A stretch of DNA of 64,000 bases from an uncultured delta proteobacterium (GTDB taxonomy: Bacteria; Desulfobacterota; Binatia; UBA9968): the NCBI GenBank assembly GCA_963745835.1, contig CAVUZH010000020.1, positions 64,001 to 128,000 on the forward strand. Reading direction: 5' to 3'. The notes beneath the pieces were generated by a model. The model ran no database searches. It was not told where the DNA came from and worked only from the letters and a program-made list of their open reading frames with translations. This document shows positions 1,190-48,548 of the stretch, piece by piece (within the stretch, counting starts at the first letter, position 1; each line of letters opens with the position of its first letter). The position numbers and the translations under genes were made by a program.

Positions 1190-2243
1190 TAGGGACGCTG
1201 TTGACTAACTGGACAAACTAGAATAGAGAGTGGAGAGAATCGATAAGGGCTACAGCGTATGCCGAGGCAGGCTAGACTGGATAGTCCCGGGACACTGCAC
1301 CATGTAATGATCCGAGGGATTGAAAAGAAGCGGATCGTCCTTGACGAGCAAGACCGAAAAGACTTTGTGCGCCGATTGGGTTTATTGGCCGTGGAAACGA
1401 AGACGGCGATCTATGCATGGGCGTTAATGAGCAACCATGCTCATTTGCTGGTTTGCAGCGGGACTGAGGGATTAGCCAAGTTTATGCGGCGATTTTTGAC
1501 CGGTTACGCGGTGAGTTATAACCTGCGCCATCGCCGGCATGGTCATCTTTTTCAGAACCGTTACAAATCGATGGTGTGCGACGGCGGCAGCTATTTCACC
1601 GAGCTGGTGCGCTACATCCACCTAAACCCGTTAAGAGTGGAGTTGGTAAAGGATTTGAGGCAACTGGAGAGATATCCCTATTGTGGACATGGAACAATCT
1701 TGGGAGCGCAATCAAACGCCTGGCAAGACCGCGACAGCGTGTTGGCCCAGTTTAGCCAACGCGAAGCGGAAGCGAAGGAGGCATACCGGCGCTATATTGC
1801 CGAAGGAGTCGTGCTGGGGCGGCGGCCGGAGCTGGTTGGGGGGAGTGGATCGGTTGGCGAATGGTTTGCGGTGAAATCCCAGCGGCGACGCAGGATTGAA
1901 GAGTCAACTGATGAGCGGATTTTGGGCAGCGGAGCATTTGTAAAGCGTGTTCTAAAAGAAGCAGATGCGCGGACACTCCGGCAAAACGCCTTCAAGAAAA
2001 CCAAACGCTATGCGGAGCGTGTCGTTGCCGCGGCCTGCAAGAAAGACGGCATATCGCTAACAGAACTCCGAAGCGGGAGCCGCCGTGGGAAACTGCCCGC
2101 CGTGAGAGTGAAGATCGTTCAGGGGCTTAGTGGAGGATTATGGCGTGCCCATCGCCGAGGTCGCTCGCCAAGTGGGTATCTCGACATCTGGAGTTTCAAA
2201 GATTCTGACACGAAGTTTGTCCAGCTAGTCAACAGCGTCCCTA
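1190..2243 (+). mobile_element. RAYT-like element with 30-bp terminal inverted repeats
   Basis: 1190-1219 TAGGGACGCTGTTGACTAACTGGACAAACT is the reverse complement of 2214-2243 AGTTTGTCCAGCTAGTCAACAGCGTCCCTA with 1 mismatch; no target duplication seen. Confidence 0.8.
1259..2228 (+). CDS. REP-associated HUH/Y1 transposase (RAYT-like) with C-terminal HTH; frameshift near 2122
   Basis: MPRQAR, HHVMIRG, LMSNHAHLL (HUH), GHLFQNRY and RYIHLNP. The alternative frame gives HTH tail LVEDYGVPIAEVARQVGISTSGVSKILTRSLSS* ending inside the right IR; the ORF track reads to 2266. Confidence 0.88.
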
Positions 2244-4974: not shown

Positions 4975-5000
4975 AGATACCAACGGTGCAATCGACCGGC

Positions 5001-5214
5001 TCGCGATGGAAGACGCACTGCATGAGATCAATGAAATTCTCGAACGGAAAGATATTCAATGGTAAGCGCAAAGCCATGATACTCGGTGAAAACGCTAAGG
5101 GATTCTACAAACTCTAATGTGAGATTCCCGTTGCTCTGAAGATGCGAGCAGGGTGATTAAGAAAGCGCTATCACGGCCAAATAATTCTGTTGGTGCAACA
5201 CAAGACCCGACGCC
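5001..5214 (+). repeat. Amidohydrolase-tail + RAYT-end repeat, copy B
   Basis: AMEDALHEINEILERK...AMILGENAKGFYKL* followed by a tail ending CAAGACCCGACGCC. Confidence 0.85.
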
Positions 5215-5349
5215 ATGGCTGTTTCCTCTCACTTTTGACCGTGAAAAGTTAGTAGAGTTGGGCAAGTCTGACACGGGGGCGTTCTCCTTCTCGAGGAGTC
5301 TGTTGGAGAACCGTGAATTGATCTAGCGAGCGGGCACGGCATTCACCGA

Positions 5350-5390
5350 TTGACCGAGGGCGAATGCTGCTGTACAGTTAGATGTACAGC
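5350..5390 (+). promoter_or_regulatory. TA promoter with YefM-type operator
   Basis: TTGACC-17-TACAGT; GCTGTACA-GTTAGA-TGTACAGC has two TGTACA cores 12 bp apart, as in the yefM-yoeB operator. Confidence 0.65.
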
Positions 5391-5398
5391 AAAAGGAG

Positions 5399-5704
5399 GT
5401 GGGTTTGAAGCAATTATCGCTAACCGAAGCGCGCGCCAAATTGAGTAGCCTGGTGGCGGAAGTCGACAAGGGAAATGGGCCCATCGCGATTGCGCAGCGG
5501 TCGAAGGTCAAGGCACTGCTCGTCGATCCCGAATGGCATGGCCGGGTAGAGGAAGAACTCGCCCACTACCGAACTCGCTCGAGGCAATCGCCGTTAAAAC
5601 TGCGGGGCAGCATGACATTGACGGGAGACCTGGACGAAGCTCTCCAGGATCTCAAGAAAGAAAGAGAGCAGTCCCTCCAGGGCGTCATTGCCGCGCTCAA
5701 GTGA
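5399..5704 (+). CDS. Phd/YefM family antitoxin
   Basis: LSLTEARAKLSSLVAEV...PIAIAQRSKVKALLV; GGAGG RBS; overlaps the toxin gene. Confidence 0.85.
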   Translation: MGLKQLSLTEARAKLSSLVAEVDKGNGPIAIAQRSKVKALLVDPEWHGRVEEELAHYRTRSRQSPLKLRGSMTLTGDLDEALQDLKKEREQSLQGVIAALK

Positions 5705-6102
5705 TTTACGTTACCGATATGCACCCGCTGGTTTTCTGGTCATCAAATCGTAGACGGCGGTTGGGAAACCGCGCACGGCGTATCTTGCAAGAGACGGAGC
5801 AGGGCAAACACTCCATCATCGTGCCGATTGTCGTTCTGGAAGAAATCAACCGGCTGGTGGAAAGAAAAATCGTTCGCTTGGAGGTTCCGTTTCGTCGCTG
5901 GGCCGAAGAGCTTGAACGCTCGCCCAACTTTCAAGTCCAGGCTTATACGTTGGAAGTTTTGCTGCAATCGGTCTCGCTCGCGGCAATCCGCGACCCGGCG
6001 GATAGAGCCATCGTCGCAACAGCCCGCCAGCTCCGCTGCCCGCTCATCACCGCCGATGACCTTATTCGAGACGGTGAGTGGGTCGATACGGTTTGGGACT
6101 GA
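5701..6102 (+). CDS. VapC/PIN family toxin
   Basis: GTG start at 5701; YVTDMH, VVLEEI, RDPADRAIVATA, LITAD. Confidence 0.88.
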   Translation: MIYVTDMHPLVFWSSNRRRRLGNRARRILQETEQGKHSIIVPIVVLEEINRLVERKIVRLEVPFRRWAEELERSPNFQVQAYTLEVLLQSVSLAAIRDPADRAIVATARQLRCPLITADDLIRDGEWVDTVWD

Positions 6103-6151
6103 CCGCCGCGAGATTATTCTCTTGCATCGATAGAACGGTCCGGAGAGGTCC

Positions 6152-6393
6152 GTGTTTGGGTCCGAGTTCCCGCACGAAACGCGATGGAGACGCATTGCAT
6201 GAGATCAATGAAATTCTCGAACGAAAAAATGTCAAGGATAGGCACAAAGCCATGATACTCAGAGACAACGCCAAGAGATTCTACAACCTCTAGTGTGAGA
6301 TCCTCCCTGTTGCACTGAATATGCGAGCGGAGCGAGTAAGAAACTATTGGGAGGCGTCAAAAGTTCTGTTGTCGTAATGCAAGACCTCACCCT
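6152..6393 (+). repeat. Amidohydrolase-tail + RAYT-end repeat, copy C
   Basis: VFGSEFPHE..DALHEINEILERKNVKDRHKAMILRDNAKRFYNL* followed by a tail ending TAATGCAAGACCTCACCC. Confidence 0.85.
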
Positions 6394-6543
6394 GCGGCTT
6401 GCCCGGCCGCGTGCTGGTAATGCTGCAACAGTTCGCCGGCGTCGCCTATCGCGGTAGTAGTCTCGCGTCTAATCGGGTTCACAATCGTGCATCGGGATCC
6501 CAAGGACCGAGCTTGAGCACCCGGGTCATGCACGGGGCTGAGA

Positions 6544-9782: not shown

Positions 9783-9819
9783 GACTGGATAACGCCTTCC
9801 CTCGGTTTGCCGCTGCTGC

Positions 9820-10012
9820 GCACGAAATCGCGATGGAAGACGCATTGATTGAGATCGATAAAATTCTCGAACGAAAAGATTTCAACGATAAGCACGAAGC
9901 CATGATACTCGGGTAAAAGCGAAGAGATTCTACAAAGAAGCCAGCGGAGTGATTAAGAAAGCGTTGTCAGGAGGTCAAATAATTCTGATGTCGCAACGCG
10001 TCACCTGACCCC
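9820..10012 (+). repeat. Amidohydrolase-tail + RAYT-end repeat, copy D
   Basis: HEIAMEDALIEIDKILERKDFNDKHEAMILG; the tail reads SGVIKKALSGGQIILMSQRVT* ending ACCTGACCCC. Confidence 0.85.
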
Positions 10013-10213
10013 ATGTCTGCCTCGTCGACAGCGCAGGGCATTTATTTGCTCGGCTCCGGTGCATGGGGCGTCAAAGATATCCTTGCGGCGGAAAACGATC
10101 TGGGTGTTCCCGTGGTTAATCCGGTTGCCGCCCGGGTTTGGTGCGTGCAAAAGCTTTTGAGAGTCAGGAATTTGTTAAAGGGAGCGAGCCGATTACTGGA
10201 GGAATTACCTTAG
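10013..10213 (+). pseudogene. Arylmalonate decarboxylase/maleate isomerase-like C-terminal fragment
   Basis: AQGIYLLGSGAW...ENDLGVPVVNPVAARVW...RLLEELP; begins immediately after TGACCCC. Confidence 0.6.
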
Positions 10214-10352
10214 AGAGCCTTGCAGTACCCGACCGAGCAGGAAACCGTGATCAGTCCGGTGAACAAACGACATGGCTGGTCAGTCAATAGAGCACAACAG
10301 CCGCATTCAACTCTTAGGGGCCTCACCATAACGGATACTGCTTGTTAGCCGA

Positions 10353-10377
10353 ATGTTGCAGTACAAGACCTGGCCCC
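10353..10377 (+). repeat. Isolated RAYT-type end motif
   Basis: ATGTTGCAGTACAAGACCTGGCCCC, matching the ends of repeats B-D. Confidence 0.6.
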
Positions 10378-10560
10378 GCGTGACCTCTCCTAACCCCCGC
10401 TTTCACTGACACCCGACGCCTCTTTGGAACTGAGCGCCAATTCTATCGCAAAGCGGCGCTGCGCGAGGCGGTCACTGCAAAAAGCGTTTCACACACATGC
10501 TAAGTCATAGTACAAAGTATCCATATTATACTATTATTACTACACTGGGGAGGATAAACG

Positions 10561-13492: not shown

Positions 13493-14540
13493 GGGTCAAA
13501 TCTTTACGTTTGTAATCCCGCCGTTTCGGTGTATAGGAAGCACCATGGCTCGGCCATTACGGATCGCCTATGCTCACGCCTTCTATCACGTAGGTTGCCG
13601 TGGTAACGATCGGAGAGAGATCTATAAGGACGATATCGATCGGACTGTCTTTTTGGAAAAGCTTCAGAGCTCGTTAGAAATCTATGGAGTTAAGCTTCAC
13701 GCCTACGTGCTCATGAGCAATCATTTTCATCTCATCATCGAGACGCCCAAGGCGAACCTGTCTGAATTCATGAGGCATTTCAATATTGCATACACCGGCG
13801 CCTATAACCGCCGGCATAAGCGAGTAGGGCATCTCTATCAGGGACGCTATAAAGCTATACTCGTGGACAAAGACAGCTATTTGTCGGAGCTGAGCCGTTA
13901 TGTGCACGTCAATCCTGTGAGGGTGGGCACGCAGAAGAGCAAAAGCCCTGATCAACAGCTTCGGCTATTGGAGAAATATCGCTGGAGTAGTTTGGCGGGA
14001 TACCTAGCATCCCATCAGAAACAAGCATGGGTTATTTACTACGCGGTGCTGGGCCAGTTTGGTGGTTCCAGGAGCAAGTACAGAGAGTTTGTCGCTGAGG
14101 CGATCCAGCAGGGATACGCCACGCCGTGGAAGGATCTCAAAGCGCAGGTTGTACTGGGCAGTGCTGAGTTTTTTACCAAAGTGAAAGCACGAGTCAGTCA
14201 TACCGGGTCGCGCCGTGAACAGCCGGCTATGAGGGCCTTTGAAGCAATCGATGCCGACGATGTGGTGAACCGGGTAAGCCGCTATTTGAAGGTCAAGGCG
14301 CAGGAATTAACAAAGAAACGGACACCTTACCGAGACTCCCGGTCGATTGCCATGGAGTTGATGTATCGTTATAGCAAGATCAGTCAGGAAGAGATCGGCA
14401 AGCGATTCGGTGGTCTCGATTACAGCGCGGTGAGTCGGGAGAGAAAGAGGCTAAGAGAGCGAATGCAAGTAGATCGAAACTTACGTGAGTCGGCGCAAGC
14501 AATCGATGCGATGCTTATCACAAAGGTAAAGATTTGACCC
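13493..14540 (+). mobile_element. RAYT-like element with 24-bp terminal inverted repeats
   Basis: GGGTCAAATCTTTACGTTTGTAAT versus ATCACAAAGGTAAAGATTTGACCC (2 mismatches); the right IR contains the stop codon. Confidence 0.8.
13545..14537 (+). CDS. REP-associated HUH/Y1 transposase with C-terminal DnaA-domain-IV-like HTH
   Basis: MARPLR, YHVGCRGN, LMSNHFHL, GHLYQGRY, RYVHVNP, YRWSS; C-terminal RSIAMEL..SQEEIGKRFGGLDYSAV. Confidence 0.92.
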   Translation: MARPLRIAYAHAFYHVGCRGNDRREIYKDDIDRTVFLEKLQSSLEIYGVKLHAYVLMSNHFHLIIETPKANLSEFMRHFNIAYTGAYNRRHKRVGHLYQGRYKAILVDKDSYLSELSRYVHVNPVRVGTQKSKSPDQQLRLLEKYRWSSLAGYLASHQKQAWVIYYAVLGQFGGSRSKYREFVAEAIQQGYATPWKDLKAQVVLGSAEFFTKVKARVSHTGSRREQPAMRAFEAIDADDVVNRVSRYLKVKAQELTKKRTPYRDSRSIAMELMYRYSKISQEEIGKRFGGLDYSAVSRERKRLRERMQVDRNLRESAQAIDAMLITKVKI

Positions 14541-16229: not shown

Positions 16230-16703
16230 GCTGGTTCTCCTGAGACTGTCTCTGGAAACTGAATGGGACGCTCGAGGCCACCACACTGACATCAAGTATT
16301 GCTTGCGCGTGCGGCGCGGCTTCTGGTTCTATTACTATTACGGGGGGCCACCCTCCCGTTCCCCATGTCGAGTTATATAATCACAGGCGTTCGAAACCAC
16401 CGGCCGCGTACTTGATAATCTCCGGTTTTATTCGTTTTTCAGTGCCGTAATCTAGCTTGAAGCATAGTCGGCGAGTTGACGAAGAGCAGCAACGGGCACA
16501 AGCGCAGAAGCAACATCCGGAATTCGTTAGGGACCGTAGCGGCGAGTCGGCCATCGGGAGAGCTAAAAGGGCAAATTTAATCGATAGCGATGCATTTGAG
16601 CGTTCACTACTTTTGACATCGCCGCAAGGGGAAATTCACGGCTCGAAGTTGTCGTTTCCTTCATCCGCATAGGCAGTCAGAGAACAAAACTTGTTCTTTT
16701 GCT

Positions 16704-16823
16704 TCACCGCGACGGCAACGGATCGGCGCCGGTGAGCTTTTTAACAGCTCGATCACCTCGGCGTCGCGCGGCATTTCCCTGATCACTTTCTCCATCTCTT
16801 CCGGCATGATCGGGCGGAGTTCT
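16704..16823 (-). pseudogene. TctC/Bug binding-protein C-terminal tail, copy 1
   Basis: PIMPEEMEKVIREMPRDAEVIEL/KKLTGADPLPSR*; similar to 17972-18101. Confidence 0.6.
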
Positions 16824-16856: not shown

Positions 16857-17806
16857 CTAATCGATACAGCCTAGAATCCAACCCTCTTCGCTGCGGATGA
16901 TATTATCGTCCCTGATCCGCTGATGATGCCCGGCGGGATGGCGAACTCGTGGATAAGCGAGTCCTTTGCGTCGAGGTCGCGCGCCCAGTGCCACATGGCG
17001 CACACTTGGCCGCGGTCTTTGATGGTGTCGGTGAGCGGCGCGCGGACGCTGGGATAGATCTCGGCATGCATAATTCGCATGGCCGGGTCGAGCCATGTTC
17101 CATCTTTGGGCGCCCATCCGGTCTCGAAAGGCCAGACGGCGGAGCATTCGGCAAACGATGCATCGAAGCGGATAGCGTTGAGACGCGGGATGCCGGTGAG
17201 TATCTGGCTGCCGACGCTGCCATTACCGAAGAGACGGAACGGAGTATTACTCTTGGCCTTCGTATCCGTGATACGAAGCGGAGCAACCGGTCCGCAAGCA
17301 CAGGAAAAAGGCTGCGAGGGCTGTTCCTGTGGAATGCAAGTGTAGACATCCGCTTTGAACTGACACCAGAATGGACCCGCGGAAGCGGGACCCGATACTA
17401 TGGAGTTGATGGCGCTTGCGACCTCGAAGCGATTGCTGCGATTGGTCGGTCGGTGGCCCGGTTTCGTCCCGAGGTCATCCTGCAAGTGCCGGCTCAAATA
17501 CTGCCAGACGGTGCGCCATGGCGGCAGCGGACCGCAATCCACGCCCGGCAGCAGCGACGCGAAGCCGGCCGGATAGCCATACCCGAAGTCGGCGCAGAGC
17601 AGCACGCGGCCTTTGTACGCCGAGACAATCGACTGAAGCTGCGCGCGGATGATCTGGTCCGCTTCCGTCCTTGACGGTGGGCTTTCGGTAACCGGTTTGC
17701 CGGCTGTGACCGGACCATGCGCAATCCAAATGCAATCGACTGTTCCCGCGCGACGCCGATTGGTCGCAGACCAATCGACCATCACATATTCGTCGAAAAG
17801 CGGCAT
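16857..17806 (-). CDS. RNase H-fold DUF429-like protein (frameshift near 16910)
   Basis: VMVDWSA, CADFGYGYP, GSVGSQ..GIP, VWPFETG, AEIYPS; terminal EEGWILG in the alternative frame. Confidence 0.65.
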
Positions 17807-17971: not shown

Positions 17972-18101
17972 TTATCGCGCGGGAAGCGGGCCGTCGCCGG
18001 AAATTTTCTTAGCAGATCGATCACCTCGTGTCACGCGGCATTTCCCTGAACGCTTTCCCCATCTCTTCGGGCACGAGCGGATCGGGATCTCCCCGGTGAG
18101 T
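17972..18101 (-). pseudogene. TctC/Bug binding-protein C-terminal tail, copy 2
   Basis: LTG/DPDPLVPEEMGKAFREMPRD/EVIDL/KKISGDGPLPAR* with several indels. Confidence 0.6.
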
Positions 18102-18312
18102 CATCTGCCATGGACCACGCTCACTGCGGCGAGTTTTTGAATCAGCTTTTTTCTGAGTGCTTCTCTGCCGCCATCAGGCTCAGGTCTGTGGCGGGGCAGA
18201 TTTCTCTCGCGTTGATGAAACCAACTTTCTTGAAGGTCGACAAATGCTCTTCGACCGTCATGAAATGGGCGGCTCGATGACCGGAAGGCGACGAAGATTG
18301 ACGTCCAGCCAG

Positions 18313-18600
18313 TTCCAGGGTCAGGTCTATCATCGCTGCACAAACACATGCGCCGGTTAACCATGCTCGCTTCCGAATCCCAATCTCAAACTCGATGATG
18401 CCGCGACCGCTGGTAATGCTGGCGCAGCAGATCTCTGCCGTAATCGTTGCCGTTGGGCGTCCGCACGATGACGTGAATATGATCTTTGTAATGCTCTTTG
18501 TATTGGGGAAAGGCCTGGCCGGCTTGATGATCGAACTCGACCAACAACACCGGGCTATGGATGCGGTAATAGAAAACGCTGTCTTCTTCCACGCCGCCGA
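18313..18600 (-). repeat. 288-bp direct repeat, copy 2 (DUF3500 3' end + end motif)
   Basis: Matches 20878-21165 with 2 mismatches seen; on the minus strand it ends AGACCTGACCCTGGAA. Confidence 0.95.
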
Positions 18601-18719
18601 CCTTGCTTATGGTTCGAAGCGGTCTGTCGGCCGCCGCGTCAGGCGAAAAATTTAATGTCCTGGACTTTACCGTGCTGTCTGAGAGAAAGTGCGAAAGTAA
18701 AGCCGAGGAGGGTAGATCG

Positions 18720-19724
18720 ATGAGATTCGTCTTTCGCCCAATGACGATCCTGACGGCGGTGGTGCTGTTGGGGACAGTGTCCAGTGATCTGTTTTCCCAG
18801 ACGAAGGCATTGAAGGAACTCAATACCTCGTACCCTCTCGGCGGCTCGAGCAGTTTTTTTTGGGTTGCCTATCGTTCAGGTTCCTTCGAAAGACAGGGTT
18901 TGAGACTTAAACCGATCTTCATCCCGGGAGGTGTCACCGCGCTCCAGTCTCTGCTGGCGAAGGAAGTATCGATTCAGTTGACCGCCGGTCCCGCCGCCAT
19001 TCGCGCCTGGGCTAGAGGCGCCAGAGAGGTCACCTTTATTGGAGCAGTCGGTAACCGGCTCGATTACATTATCGTTGCCCATCCCTCGGTGCGTAACGTC
19101 AATGATTTGAAAGGTAAGCGAATCGGCGTGAGTCAACTCGGCGCCAGCCCCGATTTCATCGCCCGGATGGGACTGCGGCGCTTGGGGCTGAATCCGGAAA
19201 AGGACGTTACCATCGTGCCGATTGGCTCGCCCGGAGAACGGTGGTCGGCACTGACAGCCGGTCATGTCCAGGCCTCGCTCTTCCAGGCGCCGTTCACCCT
19301 GCGGGCCCGCAAAGCCGGGTATGTGTCCCTGCTAGATTTTGCCACGCAAGATTTTGAGTACATCCTCTCCGGCGTTCTGACCACGCGCTCCTTCATTAAC
19401 TCGGACAGAGACACGGTAATGAATTTCATGCGTGGGTTGGCGGACGGGATGGACTTTTATCGCGACGAGAGAAATCGCGAGAAGACAATGAGCTATCTTC
19501 GTGAATATTATCGATCCAACGCCAACGAAGAGCTGGAAGAGACGATCAACATGTACAGCCGGGTCACTCCCGGCCTTCCGGCGGTGACAGCGAAGTCCAT
19601 CGAAAACGTCATCGTCAGCGACGGCGATCTTTCCGGCATGGGCCTCAAAGCGGCCGATATGCTCGATCTGTCATTCTTGCAGAAGCTTGCGGAAGAAAGA
19701 AAAGCCAAAGGCAAAGAGTCCTAA
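18720..19724 (+). CDS. ABC transporter substrate-binding protein (NMT1/SsuA-like)
   Basis: Signal peptide, DLKGKRIGVSQLG, GLNPEKDVTIV; GAGGAG RBS before ATG 18720. Confidence 0.88.
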   Translation: MRFVFRPMTILTAVVLLGTVSSDLFSQTKALKELNTSYPLGGSSSFFWVAYRSGSFERQGLRLKPIFIPGGVTALQSLLAKEVSIQLTAGPAAIRAWARGAREVTFIGAVGNRLDYIIVAHPSVRNVNDLKGKRIGVSQLGASPDFIARMGLRRLGLNPEKDVTIVPIGSPGERWSALTAGHVQASLFQAPFTLRARKAGYVSLLDFATQDFEYILSGVLTTRSFINSDRDTVMNFMRGLADGMDFYRDERNREKTMSYLREYYRSNANEELEETINMYSRVTPGLPAVTAKSIENVIVSDGDLSGMGLKAADMLDLSFLQKLAEERKAKGKES

Positions 19725-19789
19725 AGTAGCCAGGCCGCTGAAGCCGTCCATTCGAGAAGAGACATCGGTGGCCTCGACCCGTGAGCCGC

Positions 19790-20929
19790 TCACTGGGCTT
19801 TCTTCAGTCGATCGAACTGGGACTTGAACTTTTCACAAGGGTCTTCGTCGTCGATCCGTGGCGTGAACCAAACGTAATCAAAAGGCAATCGGCCATCGGA
19901 GTACGGCAGCGCGTAACTCTGCGGCGTGGTCTTCTGTTTATCGACTTCGACGAAAGATATGCTGATCACCCGCTTGTCCGGCGCCTTTGCTCTGATGTAA
20001 ACGGGTATGCCGTAATCGTCGCGGACATGACCGGCTCCGGCTACCAGGATCGCACCGCCGGGATCTCCCGCTGCAATCAAGCTCTGCGCCATCTGAGCGT
20101 CCCTGGCCCGCTGTACATCAACCATCGGTTTCAGGCTTTTCTCCGGTGCATAGCCGCAATGAGCGTCGCGTATATCAGCCGCCATGCTAGCGAACACAGG
20201 TTCGGGCGGCGGCCTGTCGAGACCCAATTCGCGCATCACCCGCGGATCGAGAGCGGCCAAGCCATCCCTGCTCATCTTCCTCGCAGTCGCAAGCGGCAAA
20301 TTCGTCGCGACGATTCTTAACTTTGCTTGAAGCGCGGCCTCGGCGATCGGCTGATACATCGCCCAATCCGGCCATCCACGTTGGTTCCAATTCACTGCCC
20401 TGCCAAGCCCGGCAGCATCGTTCGGAGCGGCGGCGAGATGTCCGGCGATAATGCTGGCGTCGTCAAGGCCGAGCATTTCAAATGCCACTGCGGGATGTCG
20501 TCCAACGGCGATCAGGCTCCGAAGCACTTCGGCCTGCAGCATGTGATGGTCGGGGTTGTCATGCCGCTCGCCGAGAAGGACGAAATCAGCGCGAGCCAAA
20601 CGCTCGACCAGAGTCTCGCGATCGATGAATCGGTCGGAGGAGACGTCCCAAATACGTCCGGCGAGAGGATGATTTCGACCTAGTGGTGATTTCCACGAGG
20701 TGGCCGAGCATCCTGCCAGGACACACGCTACGTAGCCCACGAGCAGTGCAAGTAAAGTCGTCGCGTGATGTCTTACTTGAAACCCAGCGGGCGATATCCC
20801 TCGTGCATCTGCAAGTGAAAAGTCGATTCCTTCACGGAATAACCGCGCCGTCTGTTGATTTTCAGCAGCAGTAAAATTTCCAGGGTCAGGTCTATCATCG
20901 CAGCGCAAACACATGCGCCGGTTAACCAT
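19790..20929 (-). CDS. ChaN (heme-uptake, Tiki-like) family lipoprotein; true start probably near 20780
   Basis: LAGC lipobox, VLLGERHDNPDHH, VAFEM, QRARDAQMA, AGAGHVR. Confidence 0.85.
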   Translation of the reverse strand: MVNRRMCLRCDDRPDPGNFTAAENQQTARLFREGIDFSLADARGISPAGFQVRHHATTLLALLVGYVACVLAGCSATSWKSPLGRNHPLAGRIWDVSSDRFIDRETLVERLARADFVLLGERHDNPDHHMLQAEVLRSLIAVGRHPAVAFEMLGLDDASIIAGHLAAAPNDAAGLGRAVNWNQRGWPDWAMYQPIAEAALQAKLRIVATNLPLATARKMSRDGLAALDPRVMRELGLDRPPPEPVFASMAADIRDAHCGYAPEKSLKPMVDVQRARDAQMAQSLIAAGDPGGAILVAGAGHVRDDYGIPVYIRAKAPDKRVISISFVEVDKQKTTPQSYALPYSDGRLPFDYVWFTPRIDDEDPCEKFKSQFDRLKKAQ

Positions 20930-21165
20930 GCTCGCTTCCGAATCCCAATCTCAAACTCGATGATGCCGCGACCGCTGGTAATGCTGGCGCAGCAGATCTC
21001 TGCCGTAATCGTTGCCGTTGGGCGTCCGCACGATGACGTGAATATGATCTTTGTAATGCTCTTTGTATTGGGGAAAGGCCTGGCCGGCTTGATGATCGAA
21101 CTCGACCAACAACACCGGGCTATGGATGCGGTAATAGAAAACGCTGTCTTCTTCCACGCCGCCGA
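20878..21165 (-). repeat. 288-bp direct repeat, copy 1 (within and after the intact DUF3500 gene)
   Basis: Matches 18313-18600 with 2 mismatches seen. Confidence 0.95.
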
Positions 21166-22138
21166 TCCAGGCAAAATAAGTGTCTTTGAAGTGCGAATGG
21201 GTTTCGGCCAATTTGATCGCCGCGTGACCGGGCCGCAGTTTGCCGACGTGAATCTCGACCAGCTGCGCCAGCAAATCATGCTGGGCGCCGTTTAACTGGT
21301 CATAGCGGATGCCTTGATACCCGAGTTCCAGGTTATCGCGGAAAGCCGTGGTGAATAGGTCCTTGGGCAGGCTCGCGCCGATCACCGCTTTGCCGCGCTG
21401 TTCGCCGGTCAGGCTGCGCATTAGCGCGAGGCCGCGCGCTTCTTCGGCCTGAAAGACCCGTGTGCCGGCGTATTTGCCGCTCAAGGCATGCACGGGCTCG
21501 GAGCCGAGAAATGCCGGCGTCATGGTTACCTGATCGCCGAGCACAAAAAAGTTGACGTTCAAATGATGACCGTCGATCTGCCAGCCCCAGGGCTCTTTTT
21601 CGGAGGGTGTGCCCATGATGCTGAGCCAATACAGATCCTCGCCGAACTCGTCGAGCTTGCCGGTCATTTCCATGACGGTCTCGTTAAGTCGCATGATGTC
21701 CCGCGCAGTTTGAAATCCTTGGGCGCTGAGGCTTTCTTGGAGCAGAGCCAACGCGTGATCGATCTGGCGGTCGGTCATGGCAAACAACGGCATACCATGG
21801 CGCATGATCGTGCGGTGGATATTGCTCCACAAGCGCCATTCGGGCGCGTCGACGGGGAAGAGCGTGTGGCGGCGCTGCTCGGCATCGAGCGAGGCGAGAA
21901 ACGCTTCAGCGGCTTCGCGGATGGGCTCCGTCGAAACTCCGGTCTTCTGAATGGGAAATAGTCCCTGAAGCGGCGCGCCGTCGGTAGTAACGCCTTTCCA
22001 GTTTTCGCCGAGCGCCTTGGCGGCGTTGTCGGCATAGTTCGGCGGACCGCCGCCGATGCGCAACGGCCGGCCGTTGCGCCGCGCCGCGGCGATGGCCGCA
22101 GGTTGATTGGTCGGTTTGGCTTCGCTGATGCTCATCAC
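20951..22138 (-). CDS. DUF3500 domain protein
   Basis: WGWQIDGHHL, TPAFLGSEP, YYRIHSPVLLVEFD, HIHVIVRTPNGNDYG. Confidence 0.88.
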   Translation of the reverse strand: MMSISEAKPTNQPAAIAAARRNGRPLRIGGGPPNYADNAAKALGENWKGVTTDGAPLQGLFPIQKTGVSTEPIREAAEAFLASLDAEQRRHTLFPVDAPEWRLWSNIHRTIMRHGMPLFAMTDRQIDHALALLQESLSAQGFQTARDIMRLNETVMEMTGKLDEFGEDLYWLSIMGTPSEKEPWGWQIDGHHLNVNFFVLGDQVTMTPAFLGSEPVHALSGKYAGTRVFQAEEARGLALMRSLTGEQRGKAVIGASLPKDLFTTAFRDNLELGYQGIRYDQLNGAQHDLLAQLVEIHVGKLRPGHAAIKLAETHSHFKDTYFAWIGGVEEDSVFYYRIHSPVLLVEFDHQAGQAFPQYKEHYKDHIHVIVRTPNGNDYGRDLLRQHYQRSRHHRV

Positions 22139-22303
22139 GGTTCTCCTGATCTGATAACAGTAAAATTACGCGCTCGCCTTTACCCATGTCAAACCGCGCC
22201 GGCGGATTTTCGCATTGACTGGTTTCGGCTCCGGTGTTACCTAAGCTTGACCGCGCGGGCCACGGCGGTCCGAACGGCTGTTCGGTCTGGCGGATTTTCG
22301 GCT

Positions 22304-23299
22304 ATGCGATTGATCATGAAATCACTGCGAATCATTTTTATTGGGTTGGCATGTTTGCTGACTCCGACTTCAAAGCTTTGGAGTGCGCAGGTCGTGCGCG
22401 TGGGCTATCCTTCGCTCGCCACAGGGTTTGCCGCCTCATGGGTGACGGTGGACAAGGGCATATGGAAAAAACACGGCCTCGATGTCGAGTTGATTTTCCT
22501 GCGCGGCGGCTCGCGCACGGTTTCCGCCTTGATCAGCGGCAGTGTCGATTTCATTCTCGGTTCGGATTTGGGGATCACGACGGCGATCATCCAGGGGGCA
22601 AGTTTGACCCGGGTCGGCGTGACGACCAACACGTTGGGCTATTCCATGGTCACGCAGCCGGGGATCAAAACCGTGCGCGATCTCAAGGGTAAGGTCATCG
22701 GCATTACACCCGGCCGTGACGCCGCCTATGCGCGCGTGGTCAAGCTGTTGCGCGACAACGGCATGGACTCGGCGAAGGATGTAACCTTTCTTTCGGTCGG
22801 CGACGGCGGCCCGGCGGCGCGCGTAGCGGCGCTGTCGAGCGGCGTGATTCAGGCGACCATGTTCACGCCGCCATCGGACAAGATCTCCGAGAAGGCGGGC
22901 ATGAGCATTCTTACCCGGCTGGATGTCGCCAACGTCGGCGGCGGCATCAATACGACGCCGGCATTTATCCAGAAAAACCGGCCCCAAGCGCTGGCCTTTC
23001 TGCGCGGTTATGTGGAGGGGATCCACTACTTGAAGGCGAACAAAGACGAGAGCCTGAAAATTTTTTCCAAGTATGTGCGCAACCCCGACCTCGGTATCAT
23101 GGCCTATCTCTATGAAGAGATTTCCACGCGGGCGGAAAAAGATCTGCGGCCGCAAGGCGAAGCTGTCCGCGCGCTGCTTGATCTCGCCGCCCTGGATTTT
23201 CCCCAGGCGAAGAAATTATCTGAGAAAGACAATTGGGATCTGAGCCTCCTCGACGAAATTCAGCGCTCGGGCTTTGTCGATCAGCTGTATCGGAAGTAA
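22304..23299 (+). CDS. ABC transporter substrate-binding protein (NMT1/SsuA-like)
   Basis: KGIWKKHGLDVELI, DLKGKVIG, RVAALSSG. Confidence 0.88.
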   Translation: MRLIMKSLRIIFIGLACLLTPTSKLWSAQVVRVGYPSLATGFAASWVTVDKGIWKKHGLDVELIFLRGGSRTVSALISGSVDFILGSDLGITTAIIQGASLTRVGVTTNTLGYSMVTQPGIKTVRDLKGKVIGITPGRDAAYARVVKLLRDNGMDSAKDVTFLSVGDGGPAARVAALSSGVIQATMFTPPSDKISEKAGMSILTRLDVANVGGGINTTPAFIQKNRPQALAFLRGYVEGIHYLKANKDESLKIFSKYVRNPDLGIMAYLYEEISTRAEKDLRPQGEAVRALLDLAALDFPQAKKLSEKDNWDLSLLDEIQRSGFVDQLYRK

Positions 23300-47989: not shown

Positions 47990-48548
47990 ATCTGAGCTTT
48001 CGGGCCAACGTACCAGGCCGAAGGGACGAGACAGCGAGCGAAGCGACCGGGGTTCGAGGATACGTTTCGAGCCGCTTGTCGAACCGAGACACAAAGTTAC
48101 TAACAATCAACAATGCCCGGCGCATCCGTTACACATTCGCCGACCGATTTTACTCCTGGAAAGGTACGAATTTTGGGGCACCCGCTCACGGCGCAACTCT
48201 GATGCGCTCCAGAAACTCTCGTAGTGATTCAAGATCACTGACCGATTCAGTAGCGATCTGTTCTGCTCCAAGGAACCGAAGTCGATACATAGTCGATCAA
48301 CGGACGAAGACGCTCGAAGTCTGTGATCATACTAAAATCAATAACGTATTCGGCTGCCGATGCCATGCGGACCATCAGCATCCACGAAACACAAACAACA
48401 GAAGTTTCTTCATGAGCAAGTGTTCTCATTAGCGTCGGCTACATACGTAGCGTCATTGACCGACTGGCGCGCTAAACTGGACGCCTTACCCAAGGAGTGA
48501 TAAGCCTGCGGCTTGTGGGAGACCCGATTACCAGGAGGTCGCGGCCCT

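Follow-up and report, generated by a model that had tools for sequence, protein, structure and literature searches.

We analysed a 64,000-nucleotide (nt) stretch of DNA from an uncultured delta proteobacterium (GTDB lineage Desulfobacterota; Binatia; UBA9968), positions 64,001 to 128,000 of contig CAVUZH010000020.1 in assembly GCA_963745835.1, and we refer to the whole of this stretch as the window (G000:C20:64001-128000 in our numbering of genomes and contigs). It carries a direct repeat, R, whose two copies R_A and R_B enclose the genes of a periplasmic binding protein (SBP) and a ChaN lipoprotein. R_B is the end of an intact DUF3500 gene and R_A is a second copy of that end. We consider it probable (roughly 60%) that R_A is the scar of a microhomology-mediated illegitimate recombination that is older than it looks, that it has been kept similar to R_B by gene conversion, and that it lies in a hotspot of gene turnover seeded with remnants of transposons of the TIRtron type. 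An earlier interpretation made from the letters of the window (hereafter the original prediction) had instead proposed a fresh, transposase-type event that captured the two enclosed genes as cargo.

The repeat pair and the ancestral gene order

A repeat search and pairwise alignment placed R_A at 18313-18600 and R_B at 20878-21165, a single pair of 288 nt each with a spacing of 2565 nt. By our own count on the letters of the window, the copies differ at two positions (18337, T/A; 18340, A/G), and a search of the whole genome (7.28 Mb in 25 contigs) returned exactly these two copies. Each consists of the final 215 nt of DUF3500, including the stop codon, followed by 73 nt of 3' flank. This confirmed the length, the two mismatches and the composition that had been described for the repeat, and Pfam likewise bore out that the parent gene is still present (full PF12006 profile) and that a ChaN lipoprotein and a binding protein lie between the copies. 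The boundary had been placed 5 bp past the motif AGACCTGACCC, and this is where R_A and R_B part in both motif-bearing copies (Table 1). All relevant genes are on the minus strand, SBP excepted. The open reading frame (ORF) that runs through R_A has 145 codons (18386-18823); only its last 71 codons derive from DUF3500 and the remainder is antisense to the SBP leader, so R_A is a fragment and not a gene. A scan of 18100-21300 for promoters and terminators gave nothing above shuffled sequences.

The gene order of relatives shows which copy is the secondary one. We examined 31 related records, 17 of which have an SBP of at least 92% amino acid identity; nothing stated here draws on the unpublished genome G012. 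In G005, a genome of the same genus, contig C337 (record L015) is collinear with window positions 18658-23081 at 94% identity and carries SBP, ChaN, DUF3500 and the next SBP with a single R; R_B is collinear with G005 and with records L019 and L039. Because identity to G005 is even along this stretch (SBP ~97%, ChaN ~91%, DUF3500 ~96%), the SBP-ChaN pair was not brought in later from elsewhere. The upstream flank of SBP is a TauE-family gene in 5 of the 17 records (L015, L019, L020, L027 and L029), a copy of R in two (L018 and L040) and something else in nine; L039 starts inside SBP. ChaN follows SBP in all five TauE-flank records; in L015 and L019, whose contigs extend far enough, DUF3500 comes next. 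A comparison with related genomes had been proposed from the start, and these five relatives carry the supposed cargo at the site without the second copy of R, so the claim of capture does not hold. The same observation argues that the pair is ancestral and that R_A, about 120 nt upstream of the SBP start, is on this comparison the derived copy. Distant DUF3500 orthologues (L010, L011, L012 and L014; 62-67% amino acid identity over the last 120 residues) have neither the motif nor a downstream ChaN and are of no help in polarising the event.

The junctions of R_A recur outside this assembly. Metagenome contig L040 contains R_A with the identical right junction and the identical spacing to the SBP start, and L018 does likewise. 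We also compared contigs assembled in Logan from four runs of four studies, where a contig was taken to bridge a junction if it covered 31 letters on both sides. One contig of run X8 covers 18247-18600, across the left junction between a methyltransferase fragment and R_A, with 3 differences. Contigs of runs X1 and X6 start exactly 30 nt inside R and lead into SBP, and others start 30 nt before 21166 and lead into DUF3500; such starts are expected from a 31-mer graph when both exits of R exist and do not count as bridging. The join of the ChaN 5' end through R to SBP occurs in no contig of the four runs. Contig depth in Logan cannot give a copy number, and run X5 has no cover over most of the SBP gene. 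The repeat is thus not an assembly artefact, a possibility that the original prediction had raised against itself. The estimated contamination of the genome is 9.3% and a 288-nt repeat exceeds short-read k-mers, but a repeat collapsed or misjoined in this metagenome-derived genome is scarcely credible when L040, L018 and the X8 contig over 18247-18600 independently carry its junctions.

Junctions, age and proposed mechanism

The right junction carries the clearest trace of how R_A arose. L062, the record closest to the window in the SBP leader, lacks R_A. Its letters at this point are ...CCCACGCCGTCGACCTCGCTTATGG..., against ...CCACGCCGCCGACCTTGCTTATGG... in the window and ...CCACGCCGCCGATCCAGG in DUF3500; the same comparison can also be written with ...TTCCACGCCGCCGACCTTGCTTATGG... 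for the window, ...GGTCGCCCACGCCGTCGACCTCGCTTATGG... for L062 and ...TTCCACGCCGCCGATCCAGGC for DUF3500. The two parental sites agree in 11 of the 12 nt of CCACGCCGyCGA; one lies ~120 nt upstream of the SBP start (as seen in L062) and the other 215 nt before the DUF3500 stop, and the distance between these sites is the 2565-nt period. The new join therefore lies at a short homology of both parental sites and the unit equals their distance, as in microhomology-mediated tandem duplication. To judge from these letters, the right junction is the signature of short-homology illegitimate recombination and not of a site-specific cut, which counts against the original prediction. Since the left flank of L062 has no counterpart left of R_A, R_A came with a replacement of the left flank and not by clean insertion. 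We rejected L062 as an R_A allele with an internal deletion, because nothing in its left flank is significantly similar to R or the flanks of R. A single-strand 'peel and paste' insertion of the IS200/IS605 type was rejected as well: the L062 left flank is absent left of R_A, and the flanks differ between the window and L040.

The left junction is less uniform. Beyond R_A, 7 nt (18306-18312) are also common to L040. In the window, homology to the methyltransferase starts at ACGTCAAT (native copies in contig C2 and in genomes G004 and G005); in L040, the terminal ~80 codons of an IS21-type IstB (PF01695) lie to the left instead. These different flanks require at least two joins within 0-7 nt of each other. 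IstB was rejected as the source of the shared 7 nt, as native istB DNA from three genomes fits L040 well only from CTTCCC on and matches 5 of the 12 nt before it; G000 has no istB. Nor is the R_B flank toward ChaN a decayed IstB remnant akin to the L040 flank, local alignments being no better than shuffles. Insertion of an element that split the methyltransferase was also discarded: apart from a complete paralogue on C2, G000 has this 3' fragment and no 5' half. In L018, R is preceded on its left by the ChaN 5' end, so that the contig runs ChaN-5'/R/SBP/ChaN-3'. A tandem [SBP-ChaN-R] array or a circle would give this order, and so might an assembler that walks through the repeat. In the window, R alone remains of the left unit.

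The near-identity of R_A and R_B had been taken as a mark of youth. Across the shared stretch, L040 is 2.1% and L018 3.8% diverged from the window, yet both have the same right junction, so the event predates their split, and the claim of freshness falls. The R_A of L040 has decayed, with 7 substitutions, a 1-nt insertion and a 3-nt deletion (4 gap columns) relative to the R_A of the window. At the two sites where the window copies differ, the derived letter is in R_B in both cases, and one substitution (alignment column 74) is common to the L018 and L040 copies only. In these few sequences, the near-identity of the window pair suggests gene conversion across 2.3 kb. The 99% identity of the R pair is no sign of freshness here.

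On the microhomology explanation, the ancestral order would have been a variable left flank followed by SBP, ChaN and DUF3500, with CCACGCCGyCGA as the join point between the SBP upstream region and DUF3500. Unequal exchange or slippage could have produced a 2565-bp tandem duplication of [SBP-ChaN-R], after which a deletion would have taken out the left copy of SBP-ChaN as far as the end of a decayed transposon remnant downstream of DUF3500. Alternatively, a single replication template switch could have copied ~300 nt. We infer both routes; they have the same outcome and are indistinguishable here. The event would have preceded the split of at least three strains, gene conversion across the 2.3 kb would keep the window copies nearly identical, and host replication and repair would suffice with no other enzyme needed. 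That the left end lies so near a TIRtron terminus could be coincidence or could point to a nick-prone site.

Spontaneous tandem duplications and deletions in bacteria form by short-homology joins, through RecA-independent illegitimate recombination or template switching, with subsequent partial loss of one copy. The R pair resembles them in its join at a 12-nt microhomology, in a unit equal to the distance between the sites (2565 bp), and in the intact parent beside a truncated copy; contig L018, if it is a real array, would fit the tandem stage. It differs in that the left unit keeps 288 nt only and in its left end, which adjoins a transposon terminus and was joined anew at least two times.

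Several observations sit uneasily with this explanation. Other lineages fit the microhomology less well (CCCGCGGTCTGA in the TauE group), and L062 is no direct ancestor. Beyond R, CTGGCTG is common to the window and L040, which then enter different gene interiors, methyltransferase and IstB, and two joins so close together, at a spot 3-12 nt past a transposon terminus, are not predicted by random breakage. A second terminus, at window position 6392, also marks a synteny break against G005, where homology with G005:C140 ends 3 nt past the motif. L018 may be an assembler path through the 288-nt repeat with no real tandem array behind it, and the case for gene conversion is drawn from one window pair and single copies of other strains.

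Transposon ends and rival explanations

The motif at the left end had been called a RAYT motif. It is transposase-related, and that part stands; it belongs to the terminal inverted repeats (TIRs) of elements that encode a Y1 transposase with a helix-turn-helix (HTH) domain, known as TIRYT or TIRtron elements. The exact 11-mer occurs 10 times in the 7.3 Mb genome, and 5 of the 8 occurrences outside R share ~25 nt of further similarity. Two of the copies flank a 308-codon Y1+HTH gene on contig C2 in facing orientation and form its TIRs (18694/19590; GGGGTCAG on one side). In the window, each of the two Y1_Tnp(+Bac_DnaA_C) genes likewise lies between inverted repeats of 24-27 nt that begin GGG(T/A)C, and the genome has 12 PF01797 matches. 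Di Nocera et al. (2013; PMC3733652) give GGGGWSAS as the TIR consensus, and Quentin et al. (2018; PMC6006769) place Y1 proteins with a Bac_DnaA_C-like tail in subclass 2.1. The source elements here combine the Y1 HUH domain and C-terminal HTH with flanking TIRs at C2 18694/19590 and at window positions 1192/2241 and 13493/14540.

Over its full 73 nt, the tail of R can be aligned with the final ~75 nt of TIRtron elements, so DUF3500 is followed by a decayed solo element end. This end is ancestral at the site, and its detail is not conserved: it reads GATCC in G005 and GCCTC in L019, and the stretch is deleted in L039. R itself was rejected as a TIRtron, since it has one terminus only and the opposite end falls within the coding part of DUF3500, where no repeat resembles GGGGWSAS. 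The likeness to TIRtrons as far as PMC3733652 and PMC6006769 describe them thus lies in the window's Y1_Tnp+Bac_DnaA_C genes with their 24-27-nt inverted repeats and in the R motif as a solo remnant terminus, whereas R lacks both a transposase gene and a partner repeat, its single element end is decayed, and its other end is a host-type join. The setting also recalls the REP/REPIN-RAYT system (Bertels and Rainey 2011; PMC3116915), in that a relative of the Y1 transposase occurs with short repeats scattered intergenically downstream of genes. Here, however, the repeats are TIRs and not hairpin doublets, and no high-copy palindromic REP family was found in the genome: the most frequent 11-mers are GC-rich words from coding sequence, none with more than 133 copies, against 10 for the motif.

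The TIRtron at 1180-2246 has further copies at G000:C13:630821-631885 and G000:C5:164086-165134, at 98% identity and with 27-nt inverted termini. An internally deleted copy of the same type lies at C5:162438-163100, and 5'-truncated copies that keep the 3' terminus lie at C13:573102-573519 and C18:509049-509403. Because the full copies are 98% identical, this type appears to have moved recently.

These element ends make it possible, if on balance unlikely, that a Y1+HTH (TIRYT) transposase set the left end of R_A. A nick at the solo-repeat terminus downstream of DUF3500 would break a fork or free an end, host repair would join the freed end elsewhere, and microhomology would close the other side; repeated nicking at the terminus within R_A itself would swap the left flank, and the R pair and a set of amidohydrolase-derived units in the window would stem from one process. 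The motif is a true element end on C2 (18694/19590), related termini flank both Y1+HTH genes of the window, and the 73-nt tail, as said, matches the last ~75 nt of the elements, one type of which was recently mobile (3 full copies at 98% plus truncated ones). The left end of R lies 3-5 nt from the terminus, R_A and R_B parting 5 nt past GACCC, and the window and G005:C140 part 3 nt past the motif at 6392; the left end was rejoined more than once, as the flanks of the window and L040 differ; and the four amidohydrolase units of the window, plus a fifth 15 kb upstream, share the build of the R copies and end at the motif. The right junction, by contrast, is plain microhomology with no inverted partner repeat, and G005, L019 and L039 do not conserve the exact motif at the site. 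A test of all 562 direct repeat pairs in the genome also gave no enrichment: GACCC was near an outward-facing repeat boundary, in terminus orientation, in 4 pairs, where ~20 would be expected by chance on a rough estimate, in the opposite orientation in 69 and mid-repeat in 11. The 69 pairs with GACCC/GGGTC in the opposite orientation probably belong to one repeat family. The cleavage site of TIRYT enzymes is given as not known in the part of Di Nocera et al. (2013; PMC3733652) that bears on it. We regard involvement of a transposase at the left end as possible, though unlikely.

A different explanation, the one that follows the original prediction, takes the topology of R, cargo and R at face value: a 2565-bp circle or element with SBP, ChaN and the DUF3500 tail would have integrated into the DUF3500 3' end, in Campbell fashion or site-specifically, and so enclosed new cargo. 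Integrative elements can restore the 3' end of a target gene, as at tRNA or icd-type att sites, and the intact gene, the cargo and the displaced 3' fragment of the same gene do look alike in the two cases; L018 could moreover be read as the circle junction. We hold this to be very improbable. Relatives without R_A have SBP-ChaN beside DUF3500, and the pair has diverged there to the same extent as DUF3500; the cargo is ancestral, and the join of R to the SBP upstream region is a microhomology within the conserved SBP leader. No recombinase or integrase was found between the R copies, where the Pfam scan gave NMT1 and ChaN domains only; with those domains and with relatives that hold the cargo without a second copy, a site-specific integrative element restoring the gene end was rejected. 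A diversity-generating retroelement was rejected too: none of the 30 ORFs scanned (54 to 29815) has a reverse transcriptase domain, and the two mismatches, T/A and A/G, are not confined to the adenines of one copy.

Neighbouring repeats and what the locus means

Table 1. Positions in the window of the repeat copies, the enclosed and adjoining genes, the junction and motif sequences, and the TIRtron elements
Feature	Position	Strand	Basis
R_A, secondary copy: last 215 nt of DUF3500 plus 73-nt tail	18313..18600	-	repeat search, alignment, genome search
R_B, parental copy: 3' end of intact DUF3500 plus 73-nt downstream flank	20878..21165	-	alignment, Pfam
DUF3500 gene, intact, 395 aa	20951..22138	-	PF12006, E 3.9e-101, profile 2-297 of 297
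SBP, NMT1/THI5-type periplasmic binding protein	18720..19724 (ORF 18603-19724; probable start 18720)	+	Pfam, relatives
ChaN (Cofac_haem_bdg, haem-binding, Tiki superfamily) lipoprotein gene, LAGC lipobox	19790..~20800	-	Pfam, G005 comparison
Class I S-adenosylmethionine (SAM) methyltransferase 3' fragment, ~52 codons, abutting R_A	18142..18304	-	intact gene in G005 and on G000 contig C2
3' fragment of another gene family ('...PEEMGKAFREMPRD')	17976..18100	-	second copy 16608-16813; others on C2, C4, C24
Right-junction microhomology CCACGCCGCCGA	18589..18600	.	same 12 nt at 21154-21165 in DUF3500; native SBP upstream region of L062 has CCACGCCGTCGA
AGACCTGACCC, terminus of solo TIRtron terminal inverted repeat	18318..18328 (same motif 20883-20893)	-	reverse complement GGGTCAG fits GGGGWSAS at 7 of 8 positions
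Nearest TIRtron: Y1_Tnp + Bac_DnaA_C gene between inverted repeats GGGTCAAATCTTTAC...	13493..14540	+	gene 13545-14537; PF01797, PF08299
Second TIRtron, 27-nt inverted repeats GGGACGCTGTTGACTA.CTGGACAAAC	1192..2241	+	gene 1259-2266 with PF01797

The amidohydrolase units had been offered as older products of the same kind of event as R. The likeness is real as far as the build goes, the 3' end of a gene with a decayed element end behind it; that R is a fresh example of it could not be upheld. Each unit of ~270 nt combines a frameshifted amidohydrolase_2 C-terminus with the last ~90 nt of a TIRtron (ending ...AAGACCTGACCC). The window has copies at 2530-2760, 4985-5260, 6160-6440 and 9810-10060, and the fifth copy, outside the window, is at G000:C20:~48340-48430. 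The genes between the units differ (amidohydrolase+SBP, PIN, a PhD/ParE pair and MR_MLE), and the array looks cassette-like. Two contigs of the same genus, G001:C46 and G004:C552, have 2-3 such units 1.6-3.3 kb apart. A 1.1-kb block at 5294-6395 (PIN gene, amidohydrolase tail and TIR) is 91% identical to G005:C140 (L107 1501-2602), with both flanks different; its left end (AGGAGTCTGTTGGAGAAC) resembles the TIR of the other TIRtron type at 12 of 18 positions, and the block may be a TIR-bounded passenger cassette.

Other dispersed repeats end in a similar way. A repeat of ~355 nt, at 85-89% identity, occurs at window positions 10026-10384, at G000:C21:2147-2497 and G000:C2:6126-6476, and also in G004, G005 and G007; a TIR-like motif (AGACCTGGCCC at 10366-10376) marks its end, and its start lies 13 nt past the terminus of the previous unit. 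Dispersed 3' fragments of one gene family ('...PEEMEKAFRERPRD...') lie in the window at 16608-16813 and 17976-18100, where they bracket a 311-codon ORF (16871-17806) with no Pfam match, and elsewhere in the genome at G000:C2:8683-8778, C2:19905-20110, C24:374243 and C4:23020. In C2, the 3' fragment of this family is followed by a TIR motif.

Genes next to R differ between the window and G005 as well. The ATG start of ChaN in G005 (before ...TLLALLAGYVACVLAGCS) is ACG in the window (region 20790-20930), and the frame is open upstream to ATGs at 20914 and 20929, inside R_B; the start of the lipoprotein may thus have been lost or changed. Left of SBP, G005 has the TauE-family gene and an intact SAM methyltransferase, of which the window retains the last ~52 codons only. 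G005 also has a methyltransferase 3' fragment of its own (C337, record L015, 270-377 and 5759-6433), for which the intact gene lies 5.4 kb upstream, beyond four unrelated genes, the same topology of intact gene, cargo and tail fragment as in the R pair. Parts of C337 map to six different G000 contigs, and the G000 genome has 115 local direct-repeat pairs within 15 kb, many of which are gene-tail fragments downstream of an intact gene. Gene order in the region is extremely fluid.

By itself, the R pair is a duplication scar of the textbook type. It carries two cautions: where gene conversion is possible, the near-identity of two nearby copies gives no date for an event, and genes that lie between repeats are not necessarily insertions. 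The genome of this soil bacterium is littered with gene-tail fragments and TIRYT/TIRtron ends, and these surroundings may matter more than the scar. To our knowledge, the activity of the TIRYT/TIRtron class of transposases has never been shown. A broader and more doubtful idea is that decayed TIRtron termini stay substrates of Y1+HTH transposases, whose nicks would repeatedly make and re-join blocks of gene tail and TIR, with the DUF3500 pair as a young case and the five-copy amidohydrolase unit as an old one that has spread. If so, cassette-like arrays with transposon-end boundaries would build up over time, and the locus would offer the first in-situ evidence of TIRYT action on host DNA. Should transposon ends turn out to be recurrent break points, this locus would provide a concrete, testable substrate for TIRYT enzymes.

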